9,444 nucleotides of DNA from a virus (taxonomy: Duplodnaviria > Heunggongvirae > Uroviricota > Caudoviricetes). Under the pieces are notes generated by a model. It had not been told where the DNA came from and did no database searches. It saw only the letters and a program-made list of their open reading frames with translations. This document shows positions 1-9,444 of the stretch, piece after piece. Location of the stretch: the IMG/VR virus record IMGVR_UViG_2648501797_000003, positions 1 to 9,444 of that record; one strand, 5' to 3'. Numbering within the stretch: the stretch's first letter is position 1; each line of letters starts with the position of its first letter. The translations under genes and the position numbers were made by a program.

Positions 1-783
1 CTAAATCATCGCAATGCCGTAATGCTGCCTGATGCGAAATGGTCGCCGGAAACTTAAAACAGAAGCGGAAGTCATCTGTGGTCTGCTCACGCCAGCGCAG
101 GACAACCTCGGGTTCTCAACCGCGCCGATAACCTGTTTCTCTTCTGCGCTTAACGCCACCCAGAATTCCTGATACTTAACAGTTCCAAGGCGTGCGGCAG
201 ACTCGCCTTTTGCGATCAGTTCCGGGCGGCGATCATCCGATTCATGCCCTACATGAACCTCTGTCGCACTCCCTTCAATGACACGTTCGGCTTCGTCCTG
301 ATCGAAGATGCCAGCAAACCCAAATGCGAGACGCGCACACTGGATCAGCGTCTTGTGACGAAGCATACGGGTAGGGTGGGACTGCCATGGCTGAGTGTTG
401 CGTTTGCACTCTCCCATGTACTCAGTAACGATGGTCGGGTGTGTGCGGTCTTTCCGGTATATCTTGCAGGTACACGCGCCTTCTTCCTTGTCGTAGGCAA
501 ACTCCATTCCATCAAACTGAGGATGTTCGTTGATGATTCGAGCCCAGCCGTCAACGCCGACTACAGGAACAATTCCACCTTTATCCGGGAATGCATAAAT
601 CTCTTTTGTCCACGGGTTCAGTCCGTACTGGTTGGCGACGATCAGCAGTGCCGTGAACTGCTCATCAGTGACATTCCCACCCTTAAATGCTGTATTTTTC
701 AGAGTGTTCATCAGGTCAGTTCCGGCATCCATGCCGAGGCGGGAGGCAAGCTTCCCGGCCATTGTAGAAAGTGCTGTGCTCAT
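1..783 (-). CDS. bet: Bet / Red-beta family single-strand annealing recombinase (260 aa)
   Basis: Translation from ATG at 783-781 (MSTALSTMAGKLASRLGMD...LLIVANQYGLNPWTKEIYAFPDK...VPVVGVDGW..RIINE..QFDGM...CTC.IYRKDR.HP...TE.M.EC.....PWQSHP.RMLRHK..IQCARLAFGFAGI.D.DEAER) is near-collinear with lambda Bet as I recall it. SD GAGGGG lies 6 nt upstream of this ATG. Stop TAG is at 3-1. The ORF-track start at 834 adds 17 residues with no homology and overlaps the upstream gene. Confidence 0.9.
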   Translation of the reverse strand: MSTALSTMAGKLASRLGMDAGTDLMNTLKNTAFKGGNVTDEQFTALLIVANQYGLNPWTKEIYAFPDKGGIVPVVGVDGWARIINEHPQFDGMEFAYDKEEGACTCKIYRKDRTHPTIVTEYMGECKRNTQPWQSHPTRMLRHKTLIQCARLAFGFAGIFDQDEAERVIEGSATEVHVGHESDDRRPELIAKGESAARLGTVKYQEFWVALSAEEKQVIGAVENPRLSCAGVSRPQMTSASVLSFRRPFRIRQHYGIAMI

Positions 784-799
784 AGAATTCCCCTCAAAG

Positions 800-1084
800 T
801 TAAAACGGGCAGCCGGTGCGGTGGTCCCAGTCATATTCCGCCTGGGCGTAAGCTACTGCCGAGATGAGATCGTTATATGCCTCGCCAGCTGCATCGCTGC
901 GGAGGCCTTCGTATGGGCTTTTGTCCATCGGCACAGAGAAGCGGAACAGGCCTGACGGCTCTTTCGGCAGGGCGTCGATAATTTCCTGCGCCCGATCGTC
1001 AATCCACTTTTGCTTCTCTTCGGTTAGCGACTGTTCAGCCCATTTCCTTTCTTCGATAGCGTCGTATGCGCGGTAGGCGTTCAT
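800..1084 (-). CDS. gam: Gam-like host-nuclease (RecBCD) inhibitor, 94 aa from ATG 1084 (GTG at 1090 also possible)
   Basis: N-terminus MNAYRAYDAIEERKWAEQ resembles lambda GamS MNAYYIQDRLEAQSWARHY; similar length (~95 aa), charged helical character, and position immediately upstream of bet as in lambda. Start sits 7 nt after the stop of the upstream gene with an SD-like GAGGUG spanning that stop. Homology is from memory. Confidence 0.6.
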   Translation of the reverse strand: MNAYRAYDAIEERKWAEQSLTEEKQKWIDDRAQEIIDALPKEPSGLFRFSVPMDKSPYEGLRSDAAGEAYNDLISAVAYAQAEYDWDHRTGCPF

Positions 1085-1091
1085 AAGCACC

Positions 1092-2063
1092 TCAGTAACT
1101 GATACCGGTATGGGGAATGCGGCCGTCTTTAACCGCTGTAAGCACCTCGATAGCCTGATCCCGAGTAAGGCTGGTATTGGCCAGAAGAGCTTTGACGATT
1201 TCAGTGCCTACAGCCTTGCGGTGCTTAACGTCGGCTTCGCGGCGAGCCTGCTCATCGGCTTTACGTTTCTCCTCAGCCAGGCGGGCCTGTTCGCGTTGCT
1301 CTGCCTCGCGGCGGATGCGATCGGCTTCTTCCTGAGCTTTGCGGCGCTCCGCTTCGATAGCGGCCTGCTTGTCAGCCTCAGCTTTCTTCTCGGCTGCAAT
1401 GCGATCTCGCTCTGCCTGCTCAGCTTGTGCTTTCAACACAGCTTCGCGATGCGCCGCTTCTTCACGTTCACGCGGTGCGCGCTGCTCAACTTCTCGGGCT
1501 GCTGCGGCGGCTGCCATTCGCTTAATTTCTTCTTCATGGGCAATGCGCTGGCGCTCAGCCTCAGCTGCTTTATCTGCCTGCTCTCGGTCGAAAGCGTCAT
1601 TCATCAGCATGGCCATTTCGTGGTCAGACTCAATCCGAGCTGCCAGCTGCCGATCGAACTCTTCATTCATGGCCAGTGCTTCGACGTGAAGGGCGTTCAT
1701 GGCTTCTTCGGCCTTAATGCGTTCCTGCTCCGCCTCCCATTCGGTCAACGGGCGACGCACTTCATCTTTCAGTGCATCGAGACGCTCACGGACAACGCGG
1801 CGGCTTTCATCAATCTGCTTTGGCAGCGCCTTCAGCTCAGCGACCAGGGCTTTACCTGCGTTGTCGATGTAGGTTTTAGAGCGCGCGACCTTGTGAGCCA
1901 TGGATGCGATAGCATCGCGGCCTTTTTTGGTGGTCACGTCCGGCACCAGACTGCGAGCCTCTTTTTCGATCGCTTCGATAAGCGGATCGAGTTGGTCGTT
2001 ATTGGTGAAAACCGCCATCGCGTTCTTTTTCTCGATGACGACTAAATCCATTATTTCGCTCAT
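1092..2063 (-). CDS. Hypothetical coiled-coil protein, 323 aa; structured N-terminal ~110 aa, then long Ala/Glu/Arg/Lys-rich low-complexity helical region
   Basis: Long ORF from ATG 2063-2061 with SD AGGGGA about 5 nt upstream; stop TGA at 1094-1092 directly abuts the gam-like start. Central region is repetitive (AEAERQRIA..., AAAAAARE..., KAQAEQAERDRIAAEKKAEADKQAAIEAERRKAQEEADRIRREAEQ). The antisense frames are open only because of this GC-rich repetitive coding. Family not recognised. Confidence 0.75.
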   Translation of the reverse strand: MSEIMDLVVIEKKNAMAVFTNNDQLDPLIEAIEKEARSLVPDVTTKKGRDAIASMAHKVARSKTYIDNAGKALVAELKALPKQIDESRRVVRERLDALKDEVRRPLTEWEAEQERIKAEEAMNALHVEALAMNEEFDRQLAARIESDHEMAMLMNDAFDREQADKAAEAERQRIAHEEEIKRMAAAAAAREVEQRAPREREEAAHREAVLKAQAEQAERDRIAAEKKAEADKQAAIEAERRKAQEEADRIRREAEQREQARLAEEKRKADEQARREADVKHRKAVGTEIVKALLANTSLTRDQAIEVLTAVKDGRIPHTGISY

Positions 2064-2312
2064 GGTTTCCCCTGAAATTTGGTTGTAAGAATCCCGGCAC
2101 CGTATTGGCTGCCTGATAGCTCAGTTAAATTCGTGCGCTGATATCCGGGTTTATATTGCCTGGGAGTCATTAATCAATCTGGCGTGGAGTGCGATTCGTG
2201 GCTAAATCCCCCGCCGAACGCAAAGCCGCGCAGGAGGTAAAGATCTGTTTGGCTGGAAGTGAGGGCGTGGTAATGTGTTTACCTATTCTTCATTTGCTTA
2301 GGTGGCGTGAAA
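2064..2312. promoter_or_regulatory. Divergent intergenic control region between the leftward recombination operon and the rightward small-ORF operon
   Basis: 249 bp non-coding between divergent gene starts (2063 minus, 2313 plus). Candidate leftward sigma70 promoter: -35 TTGATT (revcomp of 2172-2177), 16-nt spacer, -10 TATAAA (revcomp of 2150-2155). Short repeated motifs TTGSCTG (2105, 2156, 2249) and GGCGTG (2181, 2265, 2303). Promoter calls are by eye only. Confidence 0.35.
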
Positions 2313-2510
2313 ATGCTGTATACAGTGACGTTCAATGAGACAGAGCGGAAGGAAGATATTGAACTTAGCGCGGATGTCAGGGCGGGTGATTTGCTGTCAT
2401 TAACGCTCGATGGCGTGAAAGATGACTACACGGTGATGACAGTAGGCGGTCCTATCATTGGCAATACCTGTGTCCCATCAATAATCCGGGTAAAAAAAGC
2501 TCAGAAATAA
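2313..2510 (+). CDS. Hypothetical small acidic protein (65 aa from ATG 2313; ORF track starts at GTG 2307)
   Basis: ORF with SD AGGTGG (2300-2305) 7 nt upstream of ATG 2313; first gene of the rightward operon. No helix-turn-helix evident, so not obviously Cro-like. Confidence 0.5.
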   Translation: MLYTVTFNETERKEDIELSADVRAGDLLSLTLDGVKDDYTVMTVGGPIIGNTCVPSIIRVKKAQK

Positions 2511-2519
2511 TAATGTATA

Positions 2520-2546
2520 ATCCCCTCCACAGCAGAGGGGATTTTT
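2520..2546 (+). terminator. GC-rich hairpin with short U-tract (terminator-like) that sequesters the SD of the next gene
   Basis: 8-bp perfect stem ATCCCCTC / GAGGGGAT (2520-2527 with 2535-2542), 7-nt loop CACAGCA, then TTTT immediately followed by ATG 2547. The 3' arm contains the GAGGGG Shine-Dalgarno of the 2547 ORF. Confidence 0.45.
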
Positions 2547-2729
2547 ATGACAAACAAAAAAATGACACCTGCCGAAAAGCTCAAAGCTTCGCGGAAGCGG
2601 TATAAAAAAATCTGGCTTCAACTGGATATCGCTAACGCCAAGCGATTTGGCGAGAAAGAAGTGCTTTCCGTTGACACCTACAGATCGCCCTATGAAACGC
2701 GCAAGAAAAGAGGAAGGACAGCAGATTGA
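2547..2729 (+). CDS. Hypothetical small basic protein (60 aa), possibly nucleic-acid binding
   Basis: [42 protein letters not shown]...; Lys/Arg-rich; a beta-strand-then-helix pattern ([14 protein letters not shown]) is compatible with a ribbon-helix-helix fold, but this is a guess. Confidence 0.5.
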
Positions 2730-2989
2730 CAACATCATCCTGGAACATAGCAGCCAAATCGAAAGACGAGCAGGACAAAGTCAACGTTGACCTCGCCGCG
2801 TCCGGCGTCGCTTACAAAGAACGCCTGAACATGCCGGTTGTCGCCGAAGTGGTGGCCAGACAACAGCCTGAACACCTGCGGGACTACTTCATGGAGCGCG
2901 TCCGCTACTACCGCGAGCAGAGCATCCAGCTTCCCCGCGCATCCGATCCGCGCTATCTGGAAATGGCTGAGCAGAACGCCAAGAAATAG
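2726..2989 (+). CDS. Hypothetical protein (87 aa) with putative TTG start overlapping the upstream stop (TTGA)
   Basis: ORF in track; strong SD AGGAAGG (2711-2717) 8 nt upstream of TTG 2726; the first in-frame ATG (2831) has no SD. Confidence 0.45.
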
Positions 2990-3095
2990 CGATTTCCTCG
3001 CCTATGCTCATTTTGCTTTTATCCCCGGGAGGGGCGATAATTACTTAGTCAGTCTGGACAACTGACAACTTTACCCCGGCGCCAAGTGGGGACAC

Positions 3096-3563
3096 ATGGC
3101 GCAAACACTGCAATTTGAGAAAAGTTATCAAAACGTACTGATTCCCGCAGAGCCGGGAACCAGCGAATACCTGCAACTTATCCCCGTAGGGCAACTGCTT
3201 TGCGGTGAGTTCCGCAAGCCCAGGAATTACGCATTCCACAAGAAGTTCTTCAAACTTCTGACTCTCGGGTATCACTACTGGACGCCTTCCGGTGGTCTCA
3301 TTGAGCCCGCGGAGCGTACCCTCATATCCGGTTTTATCGACTTTCTCTCATCCGACCTCGATCAGCGCGCTGCACTCCAGAACGCCGCGGAGATGTATCT
3401 CTCCTCGGTCGGTATATCCCGTTCCCGCGATATGGCGCTGCTGAAACACTTCGAATCCTTCCGCGAGTGGGCAACCATTCAGGCTGGCTTTTATGACGAA
3501 TACCAGATGCCTGACGGCAGCCGTCGTCGTGTCGCAAAGTCGATCTCCTTTCTGGCTCGATGA
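3096..3563 (+). CDS. Hypothetical protein (155 aa), nin-region-like position
   Basis: ORF with ATG 3096 preceded by GTGGGGA. Sequence feels like a conserved enterobacterial prophage protein of unknown function (possibly a DUF-type family), but I cannot name it reliably. Confidence 0.6.
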   Translation: MAQTLQFEKSYQNVLIPAEPGTSEYLQLIPVGQLLCGEFRKPRNYAFHKKFFKLLTLGYHYWTPSGGLIEPAERTLISGFIDFLSSDLDQRAALQNAAEMYLSSVGISRSRDMALLKHFESFREWATIQAGFYDEYQMPDGSRRRVAKSISFLAR

Positions 3564-3650
3564 CCAGCAGGTTGACTACTACAGCGTGAAGAGAATGCCT
3601 GTCGTCAAAGGTGGGCGGCTTGAGCTAACCATTACCGAAATGGAGTCCGC

Positions 3651-3791
3651 ATGAGCCGTGACGTTATCGAACGCATCCGCGACCGCTGGCAAAAGCTTCG
3701 CCTCCTGCGTAGCCGCGGCACCGTGCTGGTCGACTACAAAATATTACGCAATTTCGTCCGTATCTATAAGCGCCTGGGAGAAGCAGCATGA
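3651..3791 (+). CDS. Hypothetical small Arg-rich protein (46 aa), below the ORF-track length cutoff
   Basis: ATG 3651 with SD GGAG (3642-3645) 5 nt upstream; translation MSRDVIERIRDRWQKLRLLRSRGTVLVDYKILRNFVRIYKRLGEAA; its stop TGA (3789-3791) overlaps ATG 3788 of the next gene (ATGA coupling). Confidence 0.35.
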   Translation: MSRDVIERIRDRWQKLRLLRSRGTVLVDYKILRNFVRIYKRLGEAA

Positions 3792-4477
3792 CAGCTCAAT
3801 ACTTGGAATTTGTTCGCCAGCAGCTGATAGTGGCCACCGCCGATCTGAGTGGTGCGACGAAAGGGCAACTGGTAGCTCTTGCAGAGAACGCGCAATTTAC
3901 CGCTACGGCGCGCAGCCGTGGCCGGAAGAAGGTGTATAGCGAGGTGAAGCAAAAAATGGTTAACCCGGATGGACCGCCGATGAGCGGCAGCCAGTCCCGC
4001 GCTAAGGGTTCCTCAATCGCTCTCGTTCTGCCCGTTGAATACTCGACAGCCAGCTGGCGTCGCGCCCTCCTGTCGCTGGAAGACCACCAGAAATCCTGGT
4101 TGCTGTGGAACTACAGCGACAATATCCGCTGGGAGCACCAGGAGACGATAACCCGCTGGGCATGGGAGCAATTCAGCGACAAGCTGGCCGGTGTGCGCAT
4201 TGCAAAGAAAACAGTCGATCGCCTCCGTCAACTTATCTGGCTGGCCGCACAGGACGTCAAAGCCGAGCTGGCAGGACGGGAGACGTATGAATACCAGTCG
4301 CTGGCGGAGCTGGTTGGTGTAGCAAAGTCCACATGGACAGAAACCTACCTCCCTCATTGGCTGGCGCTGCGCAGCAGTTTTGTGAAGCTTGATAGCGACG
4401 CTCTCATGGCGGTAACGCGATCACGTTCACAACAAAAGGCGTCAAATTTAGATGTAAGTCTTGCAAAACCGAACTGA
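3788..4477 (+). CDS. Hypothetical protein (229 aa); candidate late-gene regulator (Q-like by position only)
   Basis: ORF with SD GGGAG 7 nt upstream. It is the last early gene, immediately upstream of a promoter-terminator-tRNA arrangement like lambdoid Q-pR'-tR'. It has no cysteines, so it is not a lambda-Q-type zinc-finger protein. The functional call is inference. Confidence 0.55.
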   Translation: MTAQYLEFVRQQLIVATADLSGATKGQLVALAENAQFTATARSRGRKKVYSEVKQKMVNPDGPPMSGSQSRAKGSSIALVLPVEYSTASWRRALLSLEDHQKSWLLWNYSDNIRWEHQETITRWAWEQFSDKLAGVRIAKKTVDRLRQLIWLAAQDVKAELAGRETYEYQSLAELVGVAKSTWTETYLPHWLALRSSFVKLDSDALMAVTRSRSQQKASNLDVSLAKPN

Positions 4478-4489
4478 AAGGCATATATT
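4461..4489 (+). promoter_or_regulatory. Candidate sigma70 promoter (pR'-like late promoter)
   Basis: -35 TTGCAA (4461-4466), 17-nt spacer, -10 TATATT (4484-4489), overlapping the stop codon of the 229-aa gene; predicted start near 4496, about 50 nt upstream of the terminator hairpin. Confidence 0.35.
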
Positions 4490-4544
4490 TCATGTAAATC
4501 TGATATCGTCGCCATAGCTTCGATTGTCGACACATAAAGAATTC

Positions 4545-4578
4545 AAGCCCGAGGTTAACGCCTTGGGCTTTTTCATTT
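4545..4578 (+). terminator. Intrinsic terminator (tR'-like)
   Basis: 10-bp stem AAGCCCGAGG / CCTTGGGCTT (one G-U pair), 6-nt loop TTAACG, followed by TTTCATTT. Confidence 0.6.
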
Positions 4579-4580
4579 CA

Positions 4581-4655
4581 GGGTCAGAAGCACAGCGGTT
4601 GTGCGTTCGGCTGTTAACCGAATGGTAGAAGGTTCGAATCCTTCCTGTCCCGCCA
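4581..4655 (+). tRNA. tRNA-Asn (anticodon GUU)-like gene, 75 nt including encoded CCA
   Basis: Hand-folded cloverleaf: acceptor 4581-4587 with 4645-4651 (6 bp plus one T-T mismatch), D-stem GCAC/GTGC, anticodon stem TTCGG/CCGAA with loop CTGTTAA (anticodon GTT at 4613-4615), 5-nt variable loop, T-stem GAAGG/CCTTC with canonical T-loop TTCGAAT, discriminator G, CCA. Non-canonical A at position 8. Confidence 0.6.
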
Positions 4656-4661
4656 AATAAT

Positions 4662-4732
4662 GGCCTGACCTGATGACGGGCTCATAATCCAATCCATCAG
4701 GGGCGCTGCTGCAACAGCGTCACAGGCCGCCA
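4662..4732 (+). other. Degenerate tRNA-like remnant (possible decayed tRNA with CAU-type anticodon loop motif)
   Basis: GGCCTGA (4662-4668) pairs with ACAGGCC (4722-4728) and is followed by G-CCA. Inside are a 7-bp hairpin (4669-4675 with 4695-4701) whose loop contains CTCATAA, and a 5-bp hairpin CGCTG/CAGCG (4704-4719). No D-arm and no canonical T-loop. Confidence 0.25.
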
Positions 4733-4789
4733 GACCAAGCCTGGGTATTTTCGGTCATCACCGACATTGCTATTACCCTCATGCTTATT

Positions 4790-4818
4790 GCCTGCCTAAC
4801 CGCAGGCTTTTTTATTTT
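4790..4818 (+). terminator. Intrinsic terminator
   Basis: 6-bp stem GCCTGC / GCAGGC, 6-nt loop, followed by TTTTTTATTTT. Confidence 0.6.
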
Positions 4819-4920
4819 CAGGGTCGCGGGAATCACCCTCGACGCTTTGTTGGTAAATCAGCCCGACGGCCCTGACCTTCTCACACACAGCTTCCCGATC
4901 TTTCATCGGAGGCGGTAACT

Positions 4921-5340
4921 ATGGCTAAGCGTATGCAAGACAAAGAGAGCATTGCCGGGATGTCCTGGCTGGTTCTGCTGATCATTGCTGGTTGGGGCGG
5001 CCTTGTCCGATTCCTGATGGATGTAAAGCAGGGCAAAGCAAAATGGAGCTGGATAAATGCTTTTGCGCAGATTGTGGTTTCGGCTTTTACCGGGGTTATT
5101 GGTGGGCTCATCAGCATTGAAGGTGGCCTGAGTATTTACATGATACTGGCCACTGCCGGTGACCAGGTTAACAGCGAGCTATGGTGGGCGATTCAGAACG
5201 GTTATATGACGGTTAAAGCCGCAGGGGTTCGTGTCCGTGAAATAGAGACCGTCAGTGATGGTTATCAGTTTTTTGGCTTCGATATCGAAAATGACTATAT
5301 CGCTGGCTTCGACCGCGGGTCATGGGGAGAGAGATTTTAA
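4921..5340 (+). CDS. Holin-like small membrane protein (139 aa) with dual-start motif
   Basis: SD GGAGG (4908-4912) 8 nt upstream of ATG 4921. N-terminus M-A-K-R-M (Met1 and Met5 separated by Lys-Arg); hydrophobic helices around residues 11-33 and 43-79; charged C-terminal region. First gene after the late promoter/tRNA region, where lambdoid holins sit. Confidence 0.6.
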   Translation: MAKRMQDKESIAGMSWLVLLIIAGWGGLVRFLMDVKQGKAKWSWINAFAQIVVSAFTGVIGGLISIEGGLSIYMILATAGDQVNSELWWAIQNGYMTVKAAGVRVREIETVSDGYQFFGFDIENDYIAGFDRGSWGERF

Positions 5341-6221
5341 TGGCGACTAACGATTTTAAACCCTTCGCTACTGGTAGCGGGGCAAACGTATTATCACAAG
5401 CTGATTATGACGCACTGTCGGCCAGAACAACTGGCTTTTTAAGTGGCAAAGCGTCTTCGGCCCAGGTCAACAAAGCTTTAAGGCAGGCATCAACTATTGC
5501 GGCGGTTGTGGCGCAGTTTATTTCTGATAACAGCGGCGATGACACCCTTGATAACGGTAATTTACCTACCTTACTGGCTAGTCTCGAAAGCGCCCTCCTC
5601 AAGTCCTCCCCTGGGCGGTTACAGAATATCGTTAGCTTTACCGCAAATGGGACCTACACCCCATCGCCAGGAACCAAACATGTAAAAGTTATTGTTACTG
5701 GCGGTGGTGGCGGTGGTGGTGGTTGTCAGGGAACTTCAGGATCTGAATCAGTTTCAGGTGGCGGCGGCGGTGCTGGTGGTACGGCCATTGGTTATTTTGC
5801 TGTAACTGAATCCAGCTATGCAGTCACTGTAGGTGCTGGTGGTTCTGCTGGCGTTGGTGCTGTCCAGGGTGGAACAGGCGGAACCTCAATCATTAACGGC
5901 ATTAGCGGATTGGGCGGAGATGGTGGTCAGAAATCAGGGATCACTACGCTGGCTGGTGGGAAAGGCGGTATTTCTATTGGTGGCTCGGTTAACCTTCCCG
6001 GAGGTTACGGCACTGATGGGCAAAATGGCTCCCTGATTATCCCCGGCAATGGCGGCTCGTCATATTGGGGCGGCGGTGGTCGTGGGGGCGCACGCGGGGG
6101 CGTGGCAGGGGATTGTTATGGTGCCGGTGGTGGTGGCGCATATGATGCTGCCATGTCTGGCAACTCCTACAATGGCGGACAGGGGAAAGCAGGGATTGTA
6201 TATATTGAGGAATATTCTTAA
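5340..6221 (+). CDS. Glycine-rich protein (293 aa from ATG 5340), tail-fibre/adhesin-like
   Basis: ATG 5340 overlaps the upstream stop (TAATG) with GGGGAGAGAG upstream; the ORF-track start at 5322 lies inside the upstream gene. N-terminal ~110 aa ordinary composition (MATNDFKPFATGSGANVLSQADYDAL...), then polyglycine tracts (G8, G5, GGxGG) separated by short variable segments. Family not identified. Confidence 0.7.
   Translation: MATNDFKPFATGSGANVLSQADYDALSARTTGFLSGKASSAQVNKALRQASTIAAVVAQFISDNSGDDTLDNGNLPTLLASLESALLKSSPGRLQNIVSFTANGTYTPSPGTKHVKVIVTGGGGGGGGCQGTSGSESVSGGGGGAGGTAIGYFAVTESSYAVTVGAGGSAGVGAVQGGTGGTSIINGISGLGGDGGQKSGITTLAGGKGGISIGGSVNLPGGYGTDGQNGSLIIPGNGGSSYWGGGGRGGARGGVAGDCYGAGGGGAYDAAMSGNSYNGGQGKAGIVYIEEYS
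5700..5723 (+). repeat. In-frame trinucleotide simple-sequence repeat (GGY)8 encoding Gly8
   Basis: GGC GGT GGT GGC GGT GGT GGT GGT read directly from the sequence, within the Gly-rich CDS. Confidence 0.8.
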
Positions 6222-6391
6222 TGGTAAGCAAGTATGCAGTCCTGAAAGAATGCGTGGTAGAAAACATTATTGTTGCTGATGATAATTACTCTCCTGATGA
6301 TTTCGAAGTCGTAAAATATAGCGACGAAACATTTTGCCAGCCAGGCATGTTGTACAATAAAGAGGATGGTTTATTTTATGATGATAAATAA
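6221..6391 (+). CDS. Hypothetical small protein (56 aa), translationally coupled to the Gly-rich gene
   Basis: ATG 6221 overlaps stop TAA 6219-6221 (TAATG); translation MVSKYAVLKECVVENIIVADDNYSPDDFEVVKYSDETFCQPGMLYNKEDGLFYDDK. Below the ORF-track cutoff. Could be a short chaperone or a fragment of a tail-fibre assembly protein; unproven. Confidence 0.35.
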   Translation: MVSKYAVLKECVVENIIVADDNYSPDDFEVVKYSDETFCQPGMLYNKEDGLFYDDK

Positions 6392-6438
6392 TCATCAAGA
6401 ATAAATAACATTATCTACATATCTACACATTACCAATC

Positions 6439-6463
6439 AACCGGCTTATGCCGGTTTTTTATT
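6439..6463 (+). terminator. Strong intrinsic terminator directly abutting the start of the 694-aa gene
   Basis: 7-bp stem AACCGGC / GCCGGTT, 4-nt loop TTAT, followed by TTTTTTATT; ATG of the next gene at 6473. Confidence 0.7.
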
Positions 6464-6472
6464 GGGGCGACC

Positions 6473-8557
6473 ATGAGTGAATACGATACCGGCAATCCTG
6501 TGCCGTCTGCATCAATACCTGATGCATGGGATAATATGCAGTCTATTGACAGGTTCGCTAATAGTAGTGATGAAACTATTACCACGCGTACAGGTAAGCA
6601 GTTAGACACTCTGCATGGCATCAATGTAAAGTCTGATAACCAACTTAATGAACAACAAGATACCTTTGAATTATCTCAATCCGAAAGGGAATCCTCTTTC
6701 GAAGAAAAATCAAATGAATTTGAATCGCGCTTCTCCTCTCAGTTATCGGCGCAGGAATCAACATTTTCAGAATCTCAATCTGATAAAGAAAACCGCTTTC
6801 AGCAGTTCCTGAATACTTCAGGATACGTGTTCCTTGGCGATTATCAGGACGGCCCATTCCAGTTTAGTGCCCGTAACCAGTACATCCGTTACGGCAATGA
6901 GTATTACCGCCTGAATGCTGCTACTGACGTCGGCTTTACGACCACCGGAACCGATGCGACCAGCTTTGCGAACGACGTTACTCACTTCGTTCTGATGGAT
7001 GGTGATACGCTTCGCCAAGACCTGGGTTCAGGCGAAGGAGCAATGAAGGTTTACCGGAACGCCTCACCTCTGGCCAGAATCATTCGCTCCTCGATTTTTG
7101 AATACCTTACTGAAGCTGATCAGCAGGCGTTGCTCACAATTCCTGGCGTTAATGTTATCGCTGACTACGCGTTAAAAAAAGCTATAGCTGATGGAGTGAT
7201 GGTACTGGATATTCCGTGGAATGTCGGTGCGTTAAATTTCGGGCTTGACCCCGCAATGCTTCCATTAGGTTTTCAATTTATAGGGTGGGGTTGCCGACGC
7301 CCATATACAATTGATGACGATAACAGTTTTCTGAATTGCGGAGTCGTCATCCGCGTAGCTGCTGGTGCAAGTTTTCCATTTTATTCAACAGGCAGGCATG
7401 TATTCCGGGATATTGTTTTTGATGGCCGAGATAAAACAACGTACCTTTTTTATTCGCCAAATACTGCAACCCAGTTCAACGGCACCCGACTTGAGGGGTG
7501 TGGATTTTATCGGTTTGCGATCGGGATTGGCTGGGCTTCAGGAGGAACAGCCAGGTACATCGGAACAATGAAAGCATATTTCTGCTCAATATCCGGAAAC
7601 GGGGATGGAGTCAGGAATTTAATAGACTCCATGATGTTTGGTTGCACAATCAATGCTAATGATCGAGGAGTGGCCCTTACCGGTGGGGCAAACAATAACT
7701 TTTTTGGAGGATGCCGGAACGAATGGAACACCGGCGATAACTGGTATGCGTACCAGTCGGTGGAGAACCAGATTTTCGGCGAACTGTGCGACAGGGCCGG
7801 AAGGGGAGGTGTGGTCGCCGGGGCGAAATCCTCATGGATTTTAAACGGCGTTAACGTCCGGCGCAGTGGTGCTAATCAACCCGTGGGTAATGACTATTCC
7901 GCAAACTTTATTATTATTGATGACGGTAAAATTGAACTCTCAGGGGTAAGAACTGGTGTCGGTGCGAATGACAGCGGTGACGGAGGGACAATCTCGCCAT
8001 CCTACAACGTATCAGCTCTTGGCTCTGGCGGGGGGACCTTGCAGGTTTCCGGAAGTGACATGACTGGTTTTGTTACTTCAGCAATTAACCAGAAGGCGAC
8101 CACGTTAAATAAGTCGATAACCGGCAACCTTGGTATGGACGACGATGTAAATATTGGTATGACCCAGGTTGTTAAAGGCAGGCGAATTATTGGTTCACAG
8201 TCATCAGGTACGTTAGCAGGCTCTGCGGGCGCAACGTTATCGCTGACCAAGACCAACATATTCCAGAATTATTTCGATACATATATTACCCGTTCAATCC
8301 TAATTGAATGTCGAATTGGTAGCCAGTCATTTGGTGACGATATTAAAATTCCCGTCAGATTCAGAAGGGAGAATCTTTATTATCTGGATATCCTGACCTC
8401 GGGAATTGTTGCCAGCTCTGCACGCATTGGGCTTTCAGGGACTGGCGTAACGGTATCATTGTCCATTAACAGCTCAACCGGTCTGGTTACTGTTCAGTTG
8501 ACAAATGTTGATGGTCTGGAAAGAACCGTTAATGTATCAATGTTGCCCTCAATGTAG
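6473..8557 (+). CDS. Tail-fibre / tailspike-like protein (694 aa); probable receptor-binding protein with beta-helix-like body
   Basis: Long ORF. N-terminal acidic Ser/Glu/Phe repeats with roughly 11-residue spacing of Phe (TFELSQSERESSFEEKSNEFESRFSSQLSAQESTFSESQSDKENRF), typical of fibre coiled-coils; central and C-terminal Gly/Asn/Ser/Thr-rich stretches resembling beta-helix tailspike proteins. No specific family confirmed. Confidence 0.7.
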   Translation: MSEYDTGNPVPSASIPDAWDNMQSIDRFANSSDETITTRTGKQLDTLHGINVKSDNQLNEQQDTFELSQSERESSFEEKSNEFESRFSSQLSAQESTFSESQSDKENRFQQFLNTSGYVFLGDYQDGPFQFSARNQYIRYGNEYYRLNAATDVGFTTTGTDATSFANDVTHFVLMDGDTLRQDLGSGEGAMKVYRNASPLARIIRSSIFEYLTEADQQALLTIPGVNVIADYALKKAIADGVMVLDIPWNVGALNFGLDPAMLPLGFQFIGWGCRRPYTIDDDNSFLNCGVVIRVAAGASFPFYSTGRHVFRDIVFDGRDKTTYLFYSPNTATQFNGTRLEGCGFYRFAIGIGWASGGTARYIGTMKAYFCSISGNGDGVRNLIDSMMFGCTINANDRGVALTGGANNNFFGGCRNEWNTGDNWYAYQSVENQIFGELCDRAGRGGVVAGAKSSWILNGVNVRRSGANQPVGNDYSANFIIIDDGKIELSGVRTGVGANDSGDGGTISPSYNVSALGSGGGTLQVSGSDMTGFVTSAINQKATTLNKSITGNLGMDDDVNIGMTQVVKGRRIIGSQSSGTLAGSAGATLSLTKTNIFQNYFDTYITRSILIECRIGSQSFGDDIKIPVRFRRENLYYLDILTSGIVASSARIGLSGTGVTVSLSINSSTGLVTVQLTNVDGLERTVNVSMLPSM

Positions 8558-8565
8558 GAGTGAAA

Positions 8566-8745
8566 ATGGAAGACGAAACAGAACTGACCGAACCGCCATT
8601 TGAAACCTGGTTCAGAGACGTGGTTGAACTGGTTAAAAATGGCGGACATTCAATGGATATTGTTGCCTATAAGGGGGAATGGGTTGATTATTTTTCGGAA
8701 GGATTAACACCAGAAGATGCGTTTATAAAAAGAATGGCTCTTTAA
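8566..8745 (+). CDS. Hypothetical small acidic protein (59 aa from ATG 8566)
   Basis: SD AGGAG (8556-8560) overlaps the stop of the 694-aa gene, 5 nt upstream of ATG 8566; very acidic (MEDETELTEPPFETWFRDVVELV...). Confidence 0.5.
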   Translation: MEDETELTEPPFETWFRDVVELVKNGGHSMDIVAYKGEWVDYFSEGLTPEDAFIKRMAL

Positions 8746-8858
8746 ATAACCGACCGAAAATAAATGTCAGGGAGTAACGTATTGATAATTTTCGACAAAA
8801 CGGCAGAGCATAGTGAAAACCGCCTGTGGATGATGGCCAACATGGGGAGGATTCTGTA

Positions 8859-9176
8859 ATGGGCTTTCCATCACCCGCGACGGATTACACGGAACAGCGA
8901 TTAACGGTTAACTCGATCTGCAATGTCGGTCCAAATACGCGCCTCTTCGAGCAATCTGGCGGTTACGTTGTGCTGGATGTCTCCCTGAAACCAAAGCAGG
9001 CCAGTCAGGTTCTGATCCAGCACGGCGGCGGGACGGAGCTTGCCACGCTGAGAGGAAGGTCGCTGATTACCGAAGATGGTGAAGCGATCGAGGGCGAGGC
9101 CCTGGACGATGTTACTGTCATCGGTGTAGTGACGTTTACTATCTGCGATGTGCGCCAGGACAATGCGGTTGTTTAG
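8859..9176 (+). CDS. UmuD'-like protein lacking the N-terminal pro-peptide (HumD-like; 105 aa)
   Basis: SD GGAGG (8846-8850) 8 nt upstream of ATG 8859. N-terminus MGFPSPATDYTEQRLTVNSIC matches the UmuD segment GFPSPAADYVEQRIDLNQLL that begins at the Cys24-Gly25 self-cleavage site (13 of 20 identical by my recall). C-terminal TVIGVVTFTI resembles UmuD DVFGVVIHVV. No GDSM serine motif seen and no umuC-like ORF downstream. Confidence 0.65.
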   Translation: MGFPSPATDYTEQRLTVNSICNVGPNTRLFEQSGGYVVLDVSLKPKQASQVLIQHGGGTELATLRGRSLITEDGEAIEGEALDDVTVIGVVTFTICDVRQDNAVV

Positions 9177-9339
9177 TTGCAGTCAATTGATGGAAGATTT
9201 CGCGTGGCAGGCGTCTTGGGGCATGGGTGGGGCATGAGAAATCAGTGAATTTCGCCAAACATTGCAAACAACGTATGTTGGATGCTATCTCCAGCCATTA
9301 AAAATGGCGCTCCTGGACGATATTTGTCGATTTTTAAAT

Positions 9340-9444
9340 TTACCGCGTCACGCAGTTAAAGTGGCGGGCATACTCTTCAAGGCTGGTGATCCCCAACCGC
9401 ACCCATTTAGGATGCGACCATTGCGGTAGACCGATGTAAATCAT
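9340..9444 (-). pseudogene. 5' fragment (34 codons plus stop) of a DUF72 / YecE-like host gene, apparently interrupted
   Basis: Minus-strand translation from ATG at 9444-9442: MIYIGLPQWSHPKWVRLGITSLEEYARHFNCV then TR-stop. This matches my recollection of the E. coli YecE (DUF72) N-terminus, which should continue EGNTT...; divergence begins near 9348. Identification from memory. Confidence 0.45.

Follow-up and report, generated by a model that had tools for sequence, protein, structure and literature searches.

The window analysed here is a stretch of 9,444 nucleotides (nt) of tailed-phage DNA (IMG/VR record IMGVR_UViG_2648501797_000003, positions 1 to 9,444), and we are concerned with a 75-nt gene on its + strand at 4581-4655. 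This is a genuine phage-type tRNA-Asn gene, in the usual prophage slot between the late-gene switch and the lysis genes. Its unusual bases, A8/U21 and a U4.U69 mismatch in the acceptor stem, are on the evidence of its relatives inherited idiosyncrasies of a widespread phage tRNA lineage and not damage.

The tRNA-Asn gene

A sequence-only reading of the window had folded the segment by hand into a cloverleaf with the CUGUUAA anticodon loop of tRNA-Asn(GUU) and a canonical T-loop, and had remarked on the U-U acceptor mismatch and on A in place of U at position 8. ARAGORN makes tRNA-Asn(gtt) its sole call in the window, on the + strand and with the same coordinates, and all of these features are present. 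Rfam RF00005 matches at 61.4 bits against a gathering score of 29 (E = 1.1e-11). The predictors thus place it above threshold and not among pseudogenes, and it is of full length and carries no PGAP pseudogene flag. The 5' half reads GGGUCAG AA GCAC AGCGGUU GUGC G UUCGG CUGUUAA, and the 3' half CCGAA UGGUA GAAGG UUCGAAU CCUUC CUGUCCC G CCA.

4581..4655, + strand: tRNA-Asn(GUU) gene, 75 nt, with G73 and an encoded CCA (ARAGORN, Rfam, RefSeq, family covariation)
4588, 4600, 4613-4615 and 4627: A8, U21, the anticodon and A48 of this gene
4584/4648, 4652 and 4653-4655: U4.U69, the discriminator G73 and the encoded CCA

U21, the G15.A48 combination, G73 and the encoded CCA are additions to the features listed in the earlier reading. 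The conserved tRNA elements G18G19, T54-Psi55-C56, A58, U33 and a purine at 37 are all there (in AGCGGUU, UUCGAAU and CUGUUAA), and the G18G19, T-loop and anticodon-loop columns are invariant or nearly so in the family alignment. What is lacking is the canonical U8 and A21, in place of which we find A8, A14 and U21, and the R15-Y48 Levitt pair, in place of which there is G15.A48. For E. coli asparaginyl-tRNA synthetase (AsnRS) the identity set is G34, U35 and U36 plus the discriminator G73, and the set is complete here, with GUU at 4613-4615 and G73 at 4652.

The cloverleaf is also the minimum-energy structure given by RNAfold, with the U.U drawn as a 1x1 internal loop. The z-score of the fold is just -1.72, and 11 of 200 shuffles fold equally well. 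The thermodynamic z-score is thus uninformative, and we have built the case for the gene on the covariance model and on covariation.

With regard to existing annotation, positions 4400-4900 of the window are 100% identical to E. coli chromosomes in which the RefSeq order is 'bacteriophage antitermination protein Q' followed by 'tRNA-Asn'. The 75-nt tRNA is in 76 of 5,426 complete E. coli genomes, with a tRNA-Asn annotation on every copy listed, and GenBank records of Klebsiella phages also annotate tRNA-Asn. A pattern scan using one genome per species found it in 18 species of Enterobacterales, in the genera Enterobacter, Klebsiella, Citrobacter, Serratia, Pantoea, Erwinia, Cedecea, Atlantibacter and Lelliottia. 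Phage HK639 has the tRNA in its C48 form, with more tRNA sequence next to it (NC_016158 44363-44437, our locus L128 1501-1575); its reference record annotates only 'terminator' features there, and no tRNA. Across 96 contexts the identity to the window copy is 96.6% for the tRNA, of which 26 positions were preset by the search pattern, and 71% for the 85 nt upstream. The gene is therefore already in public annotation, and its kind, the Q-controlled late-leader tRNA cassette of lambdoid phages, is known; it is ordinary in kind, phage tRNA genes after Q being a textbook matter.

The unusual bases as traits of a lineage

The sequence-only reading had allowed, on the strength of A8 and U4.U69, that this might be a decaying copy. 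That suggestion does not survive comparison with the relatives, as both features are conserved across a large lineage of phage tRNA-Asn genes that has compensatory changes elsewhere. Among the distinct tRNAs of the loci that we fetched, A8 goes with A14 and U21 in 46, and U8, A14 and A21 occur together in 144; these counts lack phylogenetic independence, and our search pattern favoured Asn tRNAs. Of the 46, 42 are Asn tRNAs, 3 are Met(CAU) and 1 is Ile(GAU), so that the A8/U21 coupling recurs in Met(CAU), a tRNA of unrelated body. The swap is thus systematic, which points to a variant architecture of the 8-14-21 triple and not to damage.

In the family cloverleaf, with 22 diverse sequences aligned, 92.6% of cells pair, against 38-45% when the partners are slid. 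Changes on both sides are seen for 17 of 21 cloverleaf pairs, and none of 500 shuffles reaches the observed values. The stems of 7, 4, 5 and 5 base pairs (bp) are kept by compensatory change, with the U4.U69 mismatch tolerated across the lineage; the E. coli copies themselves show the compensatory change U27A/A43U and also an A43G wobble. Position 4 is nearly always U, its partner among the 22 aligned sequences being U in 10, G in 5 and A in 5; in a Cedecea prophage it is C. A highly divergent second Asn type retains U4.U69 and has compensated pairs at 6:67 and 7:66. G73 and CCA are retained in nearly all family members (the exceptions include a chimera with A73, described below), and G1-C72 is uniform in the lineage. 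The sole feature private to the window's E. coli lineage is C48A. This allele is shared with an intact prophage of E. coli ST361 and is found in 39 genomes, and its presence in the intact prophage makes it older than the deletions that have shaped the window.

Several variants of the family were seen in passing. One copy in E. coli 98223 (L130 601-675) and an IMG/VR variant have C70U, which places G3.U70, the identity pair of alanine-tRNA synthetase, next to U4.U69 in a tRNA with an Asn anticodon; to judge from the sequence these copies could cause Asn-to-Ala mistranslation. In E. coli O19:H7 730V1 (L133 601-675) the 5' part and anticodon of the Asn tRNA are joined to the 3' acceptor strand and A73 of Met(CAU), with the joint inside the shared T arm, and RefSeq labels the product a 67-nt tRNA-Asn; such a chimera implies recombination between cassettes, whose Met(CAU) tRNA likewise has A8/U21. 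An Ile(GAU) tRNA of Felixounavirus type, beginning GCTGTGAAAGCACATATGGATGTGCGTTCGGCTGATAACCGAA, shares A8, the GCAC D stem, the anticodon stem and the T arm with the body of the Asn tRNA but has another anticodon, acceptor stem and discriminator, which suggests origin by anticodon shift. Hafnia phage SPARTY has a tRNA-Asn (L125 301-376, annotated as such) with three consecutive U.U in the acceptor stem (GGGUUUG / CUUUCCC).

The late leader and its cassette slot

The features around the gene are as follows.

3788..4477, + strand: late-gene antiterminator gene Q, 229 amino acids (Pfam PF06323 Phage_antiter_Q, E = 1.1e-82)
4461..4489, + strand: candidate PR'-like sigma-70 promoter, TTGCAA-17-TATATT (consensus match only)
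4493..4571, + strand: IsrJ-like short leader RNA, 79-nt match (Rfam RF01393 isrJ, 57.1 bits against a gathering score of 37)
4545-4570, + strand: stem of a tR'-like terminator hairpin, followed by a T-run and ending 10 nt before the tRNA (terminator scan)
4662..4732, + strand: 'Y element', a 71-nt tRNA-like three-way-junction RNA (fold, position, covariation)
4790..4817, + strand: second intrinsic-terminator-like hairpin (GCCTGC...GCAGGC) with T-run, closing the cassette (terminator scan)
4818..4875, + strand: conserved long hairpin of 13 pairs in the leader of the holin gene, with compensatory changes at 5 pairs in a comparison of 15 loci
4933..5159, + strand: truncated holin gene (Pfam PF16083), fused to the 3' end of a baseplate (DUF2612) gene
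5159|5160, and also 2151-2233 and 3550: deletion sites (comparison with the ST361 prophage)

The earlier description of an element-encoded gene right after a tR'-like terminator, placed between Q and the late genes as in lambdoid phages, is borne out by this arrangement: the gene upstream, whose RefSeq product is 'bacteriophage antitermination protein Q', belongs to PF06323, and the next protein-coding gene is the holin gene. The candidate promoter overlaps the 3' end of Q, lies 4 nt upstream of the IsrJ-like RNA and is the only promoter-like site on the + strand in 3700-5400. Transcription of the tRNA would be Q-dependent, because the consensus scan gave no further promoter-like site between the terminator and the tRNA. 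We infer that the IsrJ-like RNA is the short PR'-tR' leader on which Q may act, and in this Q family the short, terminated PR' transcript seems to be what was published from Salmonella as the small RNA IsrJ. The isrJ core motif is present in at least 119 IMG/VR contigs. In relatives the stem of the second terminator is retained, with a compensatory change.

The site after the Q terminator is, judging by the same layout in more than 100 viral contigs, a variable slot for tRNA cassettes. Its contents in the 113 informative loci are:

nothing: 69 loci
Arg: 15 loci
Asn: 7 loci, 4 of them being the window and three E. coli loci
Met-Arg: 4 loci
Met: 3 loci
Phe-Thr: 3 loci
Asn-Gly-Thr, Asn-Arg, Asn-Thr and Gly: 2 loci each
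Asn-Phe-Thr-Arg and others: 1 locus each

Whatever the sequence of the terminator, its T-run is always within about 5-10 nt of the start of the first tRNA. A further conserved segment, ATCCGGTCAGGGCTCTTGGGTAGAGACGTGC...CAAGAGCCCTGAACC, which seems to be structured, separates the terminator from the Y element in 11 loci (for example L253, L257 and L263), and it is found directly after the terminator in L044, L082 and L105 as well; ARAGORN finds no tRNA there.

The 5' strand of the hairpin at 4818-4875, UCAGGGUC, occurs a second time at 4577-4585, where it runs up to and into the start of the tRNA, and the repeat suggests that the cassette was inserted at this microhomology. The slightly longer form TTTCAGGGTC (4576-4585 and 4816-4825) had raised the possibility of a second, degenerate tRNA at 4821-4879. 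This was rejected, as neither ARAGORN nor Rfam gives a match there, and the repeat is instead the 5' strand of the covariation-supported hairpin.

The prophage remnant

The window is what deletions have left of a Klebsiella-type lambdoid prophage, 9.4 kb that lie between a DUF72 gene beside yecN and the yecD gene of E. coli. This remnant is carried by 4 of the 5,426 complete E. coli genomes, and strains B18271, 22F46 and 23CRST022 are among the carriers. With the intact relative of about 40 kb in E. coli ST361 (NZ_CP103704) as reference, three blocks are missing: immunity and replication; ybcO and rusA; and a stretch of 21.6 kb that begins in the middle of the holin gene and runs as far as a baseplate gene (junction 5159|5160). 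The remnant is thus without the repressor/PR region, the lysis genes (the holin gene being truncated), all of the head genes and most of the tail genes. RefSeq marks the truncated holin gene and the baseplate fragment as pseudogenes.

This history removes one of the earlier arguments on function, which tied the tRNA to the Gly/Asn/Ser-rich proteins downstream. Those are tail proteins, and the Asn-rich tail-fibre gene adjoins the tRNA only because of the deletion of about 21.6 kb. In a prophage without lysis or head genes the tRNA is probably idle cargo, as far as this window is concerned.

The Y element beside the tRNA

The Y element consists of a 6-bp acceptor-like stem, a long arm and a 7-bp covarying hairpin, followed by G-CCA, and has no D arm. 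The tip of the long arm is GGG-CUCAUAA-(U/C)CC, with UCC in the window, so that it has a CAU loop like that of the tRNA-Met/fMet anticodon arm. In 108 of 110 viral loci a gap of exactly 6 nt separates the CCA of the array's last tRNA from the start of the element, and 111 of 121 copies have the NCCA tail. The fold is backed by covariation, and neither ARAGORN nor Rfam makes a call on the element.

Two identities for it were considered and set aside. As a D-armless tRNA it gets no ARAGORN call in standard or mitochondrial modes, the lone low-threshold call being on the wrong strand. Against a put-type antiterminator, our covariance model of the element, R1, matches neither HK022 nor the annotated putL-like RNA of HK639. 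Model R1 also found no divergent copies in 98 other loci. Analogues may be the stable RNAs C and D in the tRNA cluster of phage T4. For its role a processing module, a put-like antiterminator and a decoy are the candidates.

The Y element has relatives in a different setting, in phages SfV (L348 1495-1561), mEp460 (L349 1495-1561) and Pantoea phage PA-1 (L350 1191-1252). In SfV and mEp460 they are in the leader of the leftward early operon, past cI and two terminators and immediately after a sub-threshold STnc100-like RNA; the same arm is matched in Stx2a, Stx2c and cdtI phages, by sequence match alone. The early-leader versions have a 25-bp closing stem and no CCA, and they are not similar to the put RNAs of HK022 or HK639. 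Their arm tip, CGGGCUCAUAACCC, is identical over 14 nt to the anticodon arm of E. coli initiator tRNA, the sequence of which we verified.

Function of the tRNA

We consider it probable that the gene gives a Q-dependent, late-expressed decoding tRNA, the benefit of which would be extra or replacement Asn-tRNA. Gene structure, covariation, position and distribution are what the analysis establishes, and Q-dependent transcription, processing, charging and benefit are what we infer, along the following lines. RNA polymerase would start at the PR'-like promoter at the end of gene Q and, without Q, would stop at the terminator 10 nt before the tRNA, so that only the IsrJ-like RNA of about 80 nt was released. 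With Q it would transcribe the tRNA and the Y element, continue past the second terminator and reach the lysis and structural genes. RNase P would cut the tRNA at G1, and 3' trimming would halt at the encoded CCA. The tRNA would then be charged by host AsnRS through G34-U35-U36 and G73, and the phage would have its own supply of Asn-tRNA late in infection.

The proposal that the tRNA serves codon supply finds weak support. Asn takes 4.73% of the 8,089 late-gene codons of the intact relative; early genes have 3.78%, flanking host genes 3.81%, and the tail fibre gene reaches 7.1%. On the other side, none of the Asn (AAY) codons is rare, four host genes already encode tRNA-Asn, and late regions have 4.31% Asn in 37 loci with the tRNA against 4.14% in 44 without, which is not a significant difference (p = 0.09, the loci not being phylogenetically independent). 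These facts count against the decoding role as we have put it, and there are others. When the comparison with host asn genes that had been suggested was run, just 46 of 77 aligned positions were identical to host tRNA-Asn. That rules out recent capture of a host gene, and a divergence of about 40% is more than simple dosage supplementation would need. The window copy has G15.A48 where all other near-identical (GGGUCAG-type) copies have G15-C48. Finally the surrounding prophage, having lost its immunity, replication, lysis and morphogenesis genes, has no obvious present use for the tRNA.

The main rival reading is that the tRNA serves counter-defence, being still charged by host AsnRS but escaping enzymes that deplete host tRNA-Asn, and specifically those acceptor-stem tRNA nucleases (tRNases) that need G73 and a weak U1-A72 pair. 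We think this unlikely, although several observations speak for it. Codon demand explains little, and the tRNA content of the slot varies (Arg-UCU, Thr-UGU, Phe, Gly-UCC, CAU and Asn), as that of accessory loci does. Every member of the phage lineage is G1-C72, whereas the host is U1-A72. In tRNA-Asn and tRNA-Gln of E. coli the toxin CdiA-CT(EC869) cuts between positions 71 and 72, provided that G73 is present and the 1:72 pair is weak or mismatched; tRNA-Gln altered to G1-C72 is cut inefficiently (PMC9071432). Phage tRNAs are also known to rescue phages from retron and PrrC tRNases, but in that study a phage SP15 tRNA-Asn gave no rescue from PrrC170 (PMC11555353). CdiA toxins act between competing bacteria and have no known part in phage defence, G1-C72 is simply the commonest tRNA end pair, and no defence system was seen in the window. 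In addition the anticodon loop CUGUUAA is that of the host, so that anticodon-loop nucleases such as colicin E5 should still cut the phage tRNA. Anti-defence phage tRNAs have been described with changes in the anticodon loop targeted by anticodon nucleases (PMC10264068), and the tRNA-Asn fails that signature. A stronger form of the proposal, that the lineage is a nuclease-proof stand-in (GUU and G73 kept, G1-C72, U8 dropped) that makes up an anti-tRNase module with the Y element in the late leader of temperate phages, we regard as very doubtful.

It is also rather improbable, in our view, that the window copy is just a neutral or decaying relic, intact as to sequence class but weakened by C48A and stranded, unexpressed or unused, in a dead prophage. 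The extent of the deletions and the presence of the remnant in so few genomes fit such an account, as does the restriction of A48, which breaks G15-C48, to the E. coli lineage among near-identical copies. Damaged copies are indeed known elsewhere, in Klebsiella sp. R390 (stem mismatches) and as the Asn/Met chimera of E. coli 730V1. However the A48 allele is not confined to the remnant, being that of the intact ST361 prophage, and some virulent-phage relatives carry A48 too, though paired with U15. The stems, T-loop, G18G19, anticodon loop, G73 and CCA of the window copy are all intact, consistent with its Rfam score, and truly damaged relatives (L133 and L331) look unlike it. As for the remaining alternative, it would make the tRNA and Y element chiefly RNase P sites, which detach the terminator leader and set the 5' end of the late mRNA, with decoding secondary. 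RNase P separates closely spaced tRNAs in polycistronic transcripts of E. coli, and both the constant distance of the tRNA 5' end from the T-run and the exact 6-nt spacing of the Y element, with its NCCA end, would suit such punctuation. Yet the 69 loci that have no tRNA at the site tell against it, and the conserved anticodon, G73 and covarying cloverleaf fit decoding and exceed the needs of a cleavage signal. We give this account very little chance, and retain the late-expressed decoding tRNA as the best choice.

Comparison with known systems

In Shiga toxin (Stx) phage 933W the genes ileZ-argN-argO lie between Q/PR'-tR' and the late genes. Salmonella prophage BTP1 has two central tRNA genes before its late operon (PMC7067206). 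The cassette described here is like these in position and strand, after Q and the terminated leader and before the lysis genes, and in being short and tightly packed. It differs in having an Asn-GUU tRNA that reads common codons, and not rare-codon Arg or Ile tRNAs, in the A8/U21 and U4.U69 of the tRNA body, and in that many of its relatives have arrays ending in a Y element.

Outside the temperate phages the nearest relatives, at 78-88% identity, are the tRNA-Asn genes of Aeromonas phage AhSzw-1 (T5-like), Kolesnikvirus SPARTY and Felixounavirus JK55. They share the A8-A9-GCAC D stem, U21, G1-C72 and G73, have weak or mismatched pairs in the middle or at the base of the acceptor stem, and in AhSzw-1 and SPARTY also encode CCA. 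They are, however, in arrays of 4 to 15 genes of lytic phages, in contrast to a single cassette in the Q-controlled leader of a temperate phage. The 15-tRNA array of AhSzw-1 also includes an ARAGORN tRNA with CUA anticodon ('Pyl'), of amber-suppressor type (L123 2633-2707).

Host tRNA-Asn (asnT, asnU, asnV and asnW, four copies per genome verified) has the same anticodon loop CUGUUAA, G73, CCA and type of T-loop, but differs in U1-A72, U8/A21, a fully paired acceptor stem and G15-C48. By analogy the phage tRNA presumably uses the same synthetase. Host tRNA-Asn carries the modifications Q34 and t6A37, and the phage tRNA presumably does likewise.

In the case of IsrJ of Salmonella Gifsy-1, 4493-4571 of the window matches the family including the terminator. 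IsrJ is an abundant prophage RNA of about 74 nt that is expressed in lysogens (PMC7067206). The Gifsy-1 isrJ follows isrK-orf45-anrP and is not directly after a Q-like gene (PMC4825925), whereas here the RNA comes directly after Q and is followed by the tRNA.

Significance

The gene itself adds little, being of a textbook kind and already annotated, and the Y element, which is unannotated, is perhaps a more original lead than the tRNA. What the tRNA does show is that A8 and an acceptor-stem mismatch ought not to be taken as evidence of a pseudogene when they occur in a phage tRNA; here they characterise a lineage found in temperate and virulent phages of enterobacteria alike. The coupled A8/U21 swap bears on the architecture of the tRNA core. 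The G1-C72 pair found throughout the lineage makes nuclease evasion by this tRNA-Asn a concrete hypothesis that can be tested cheaply. The recombination slot after the Q terminator, with its shuffled tRNA cassettes, is a natural experiment on why temperate phages carry tRNAs.

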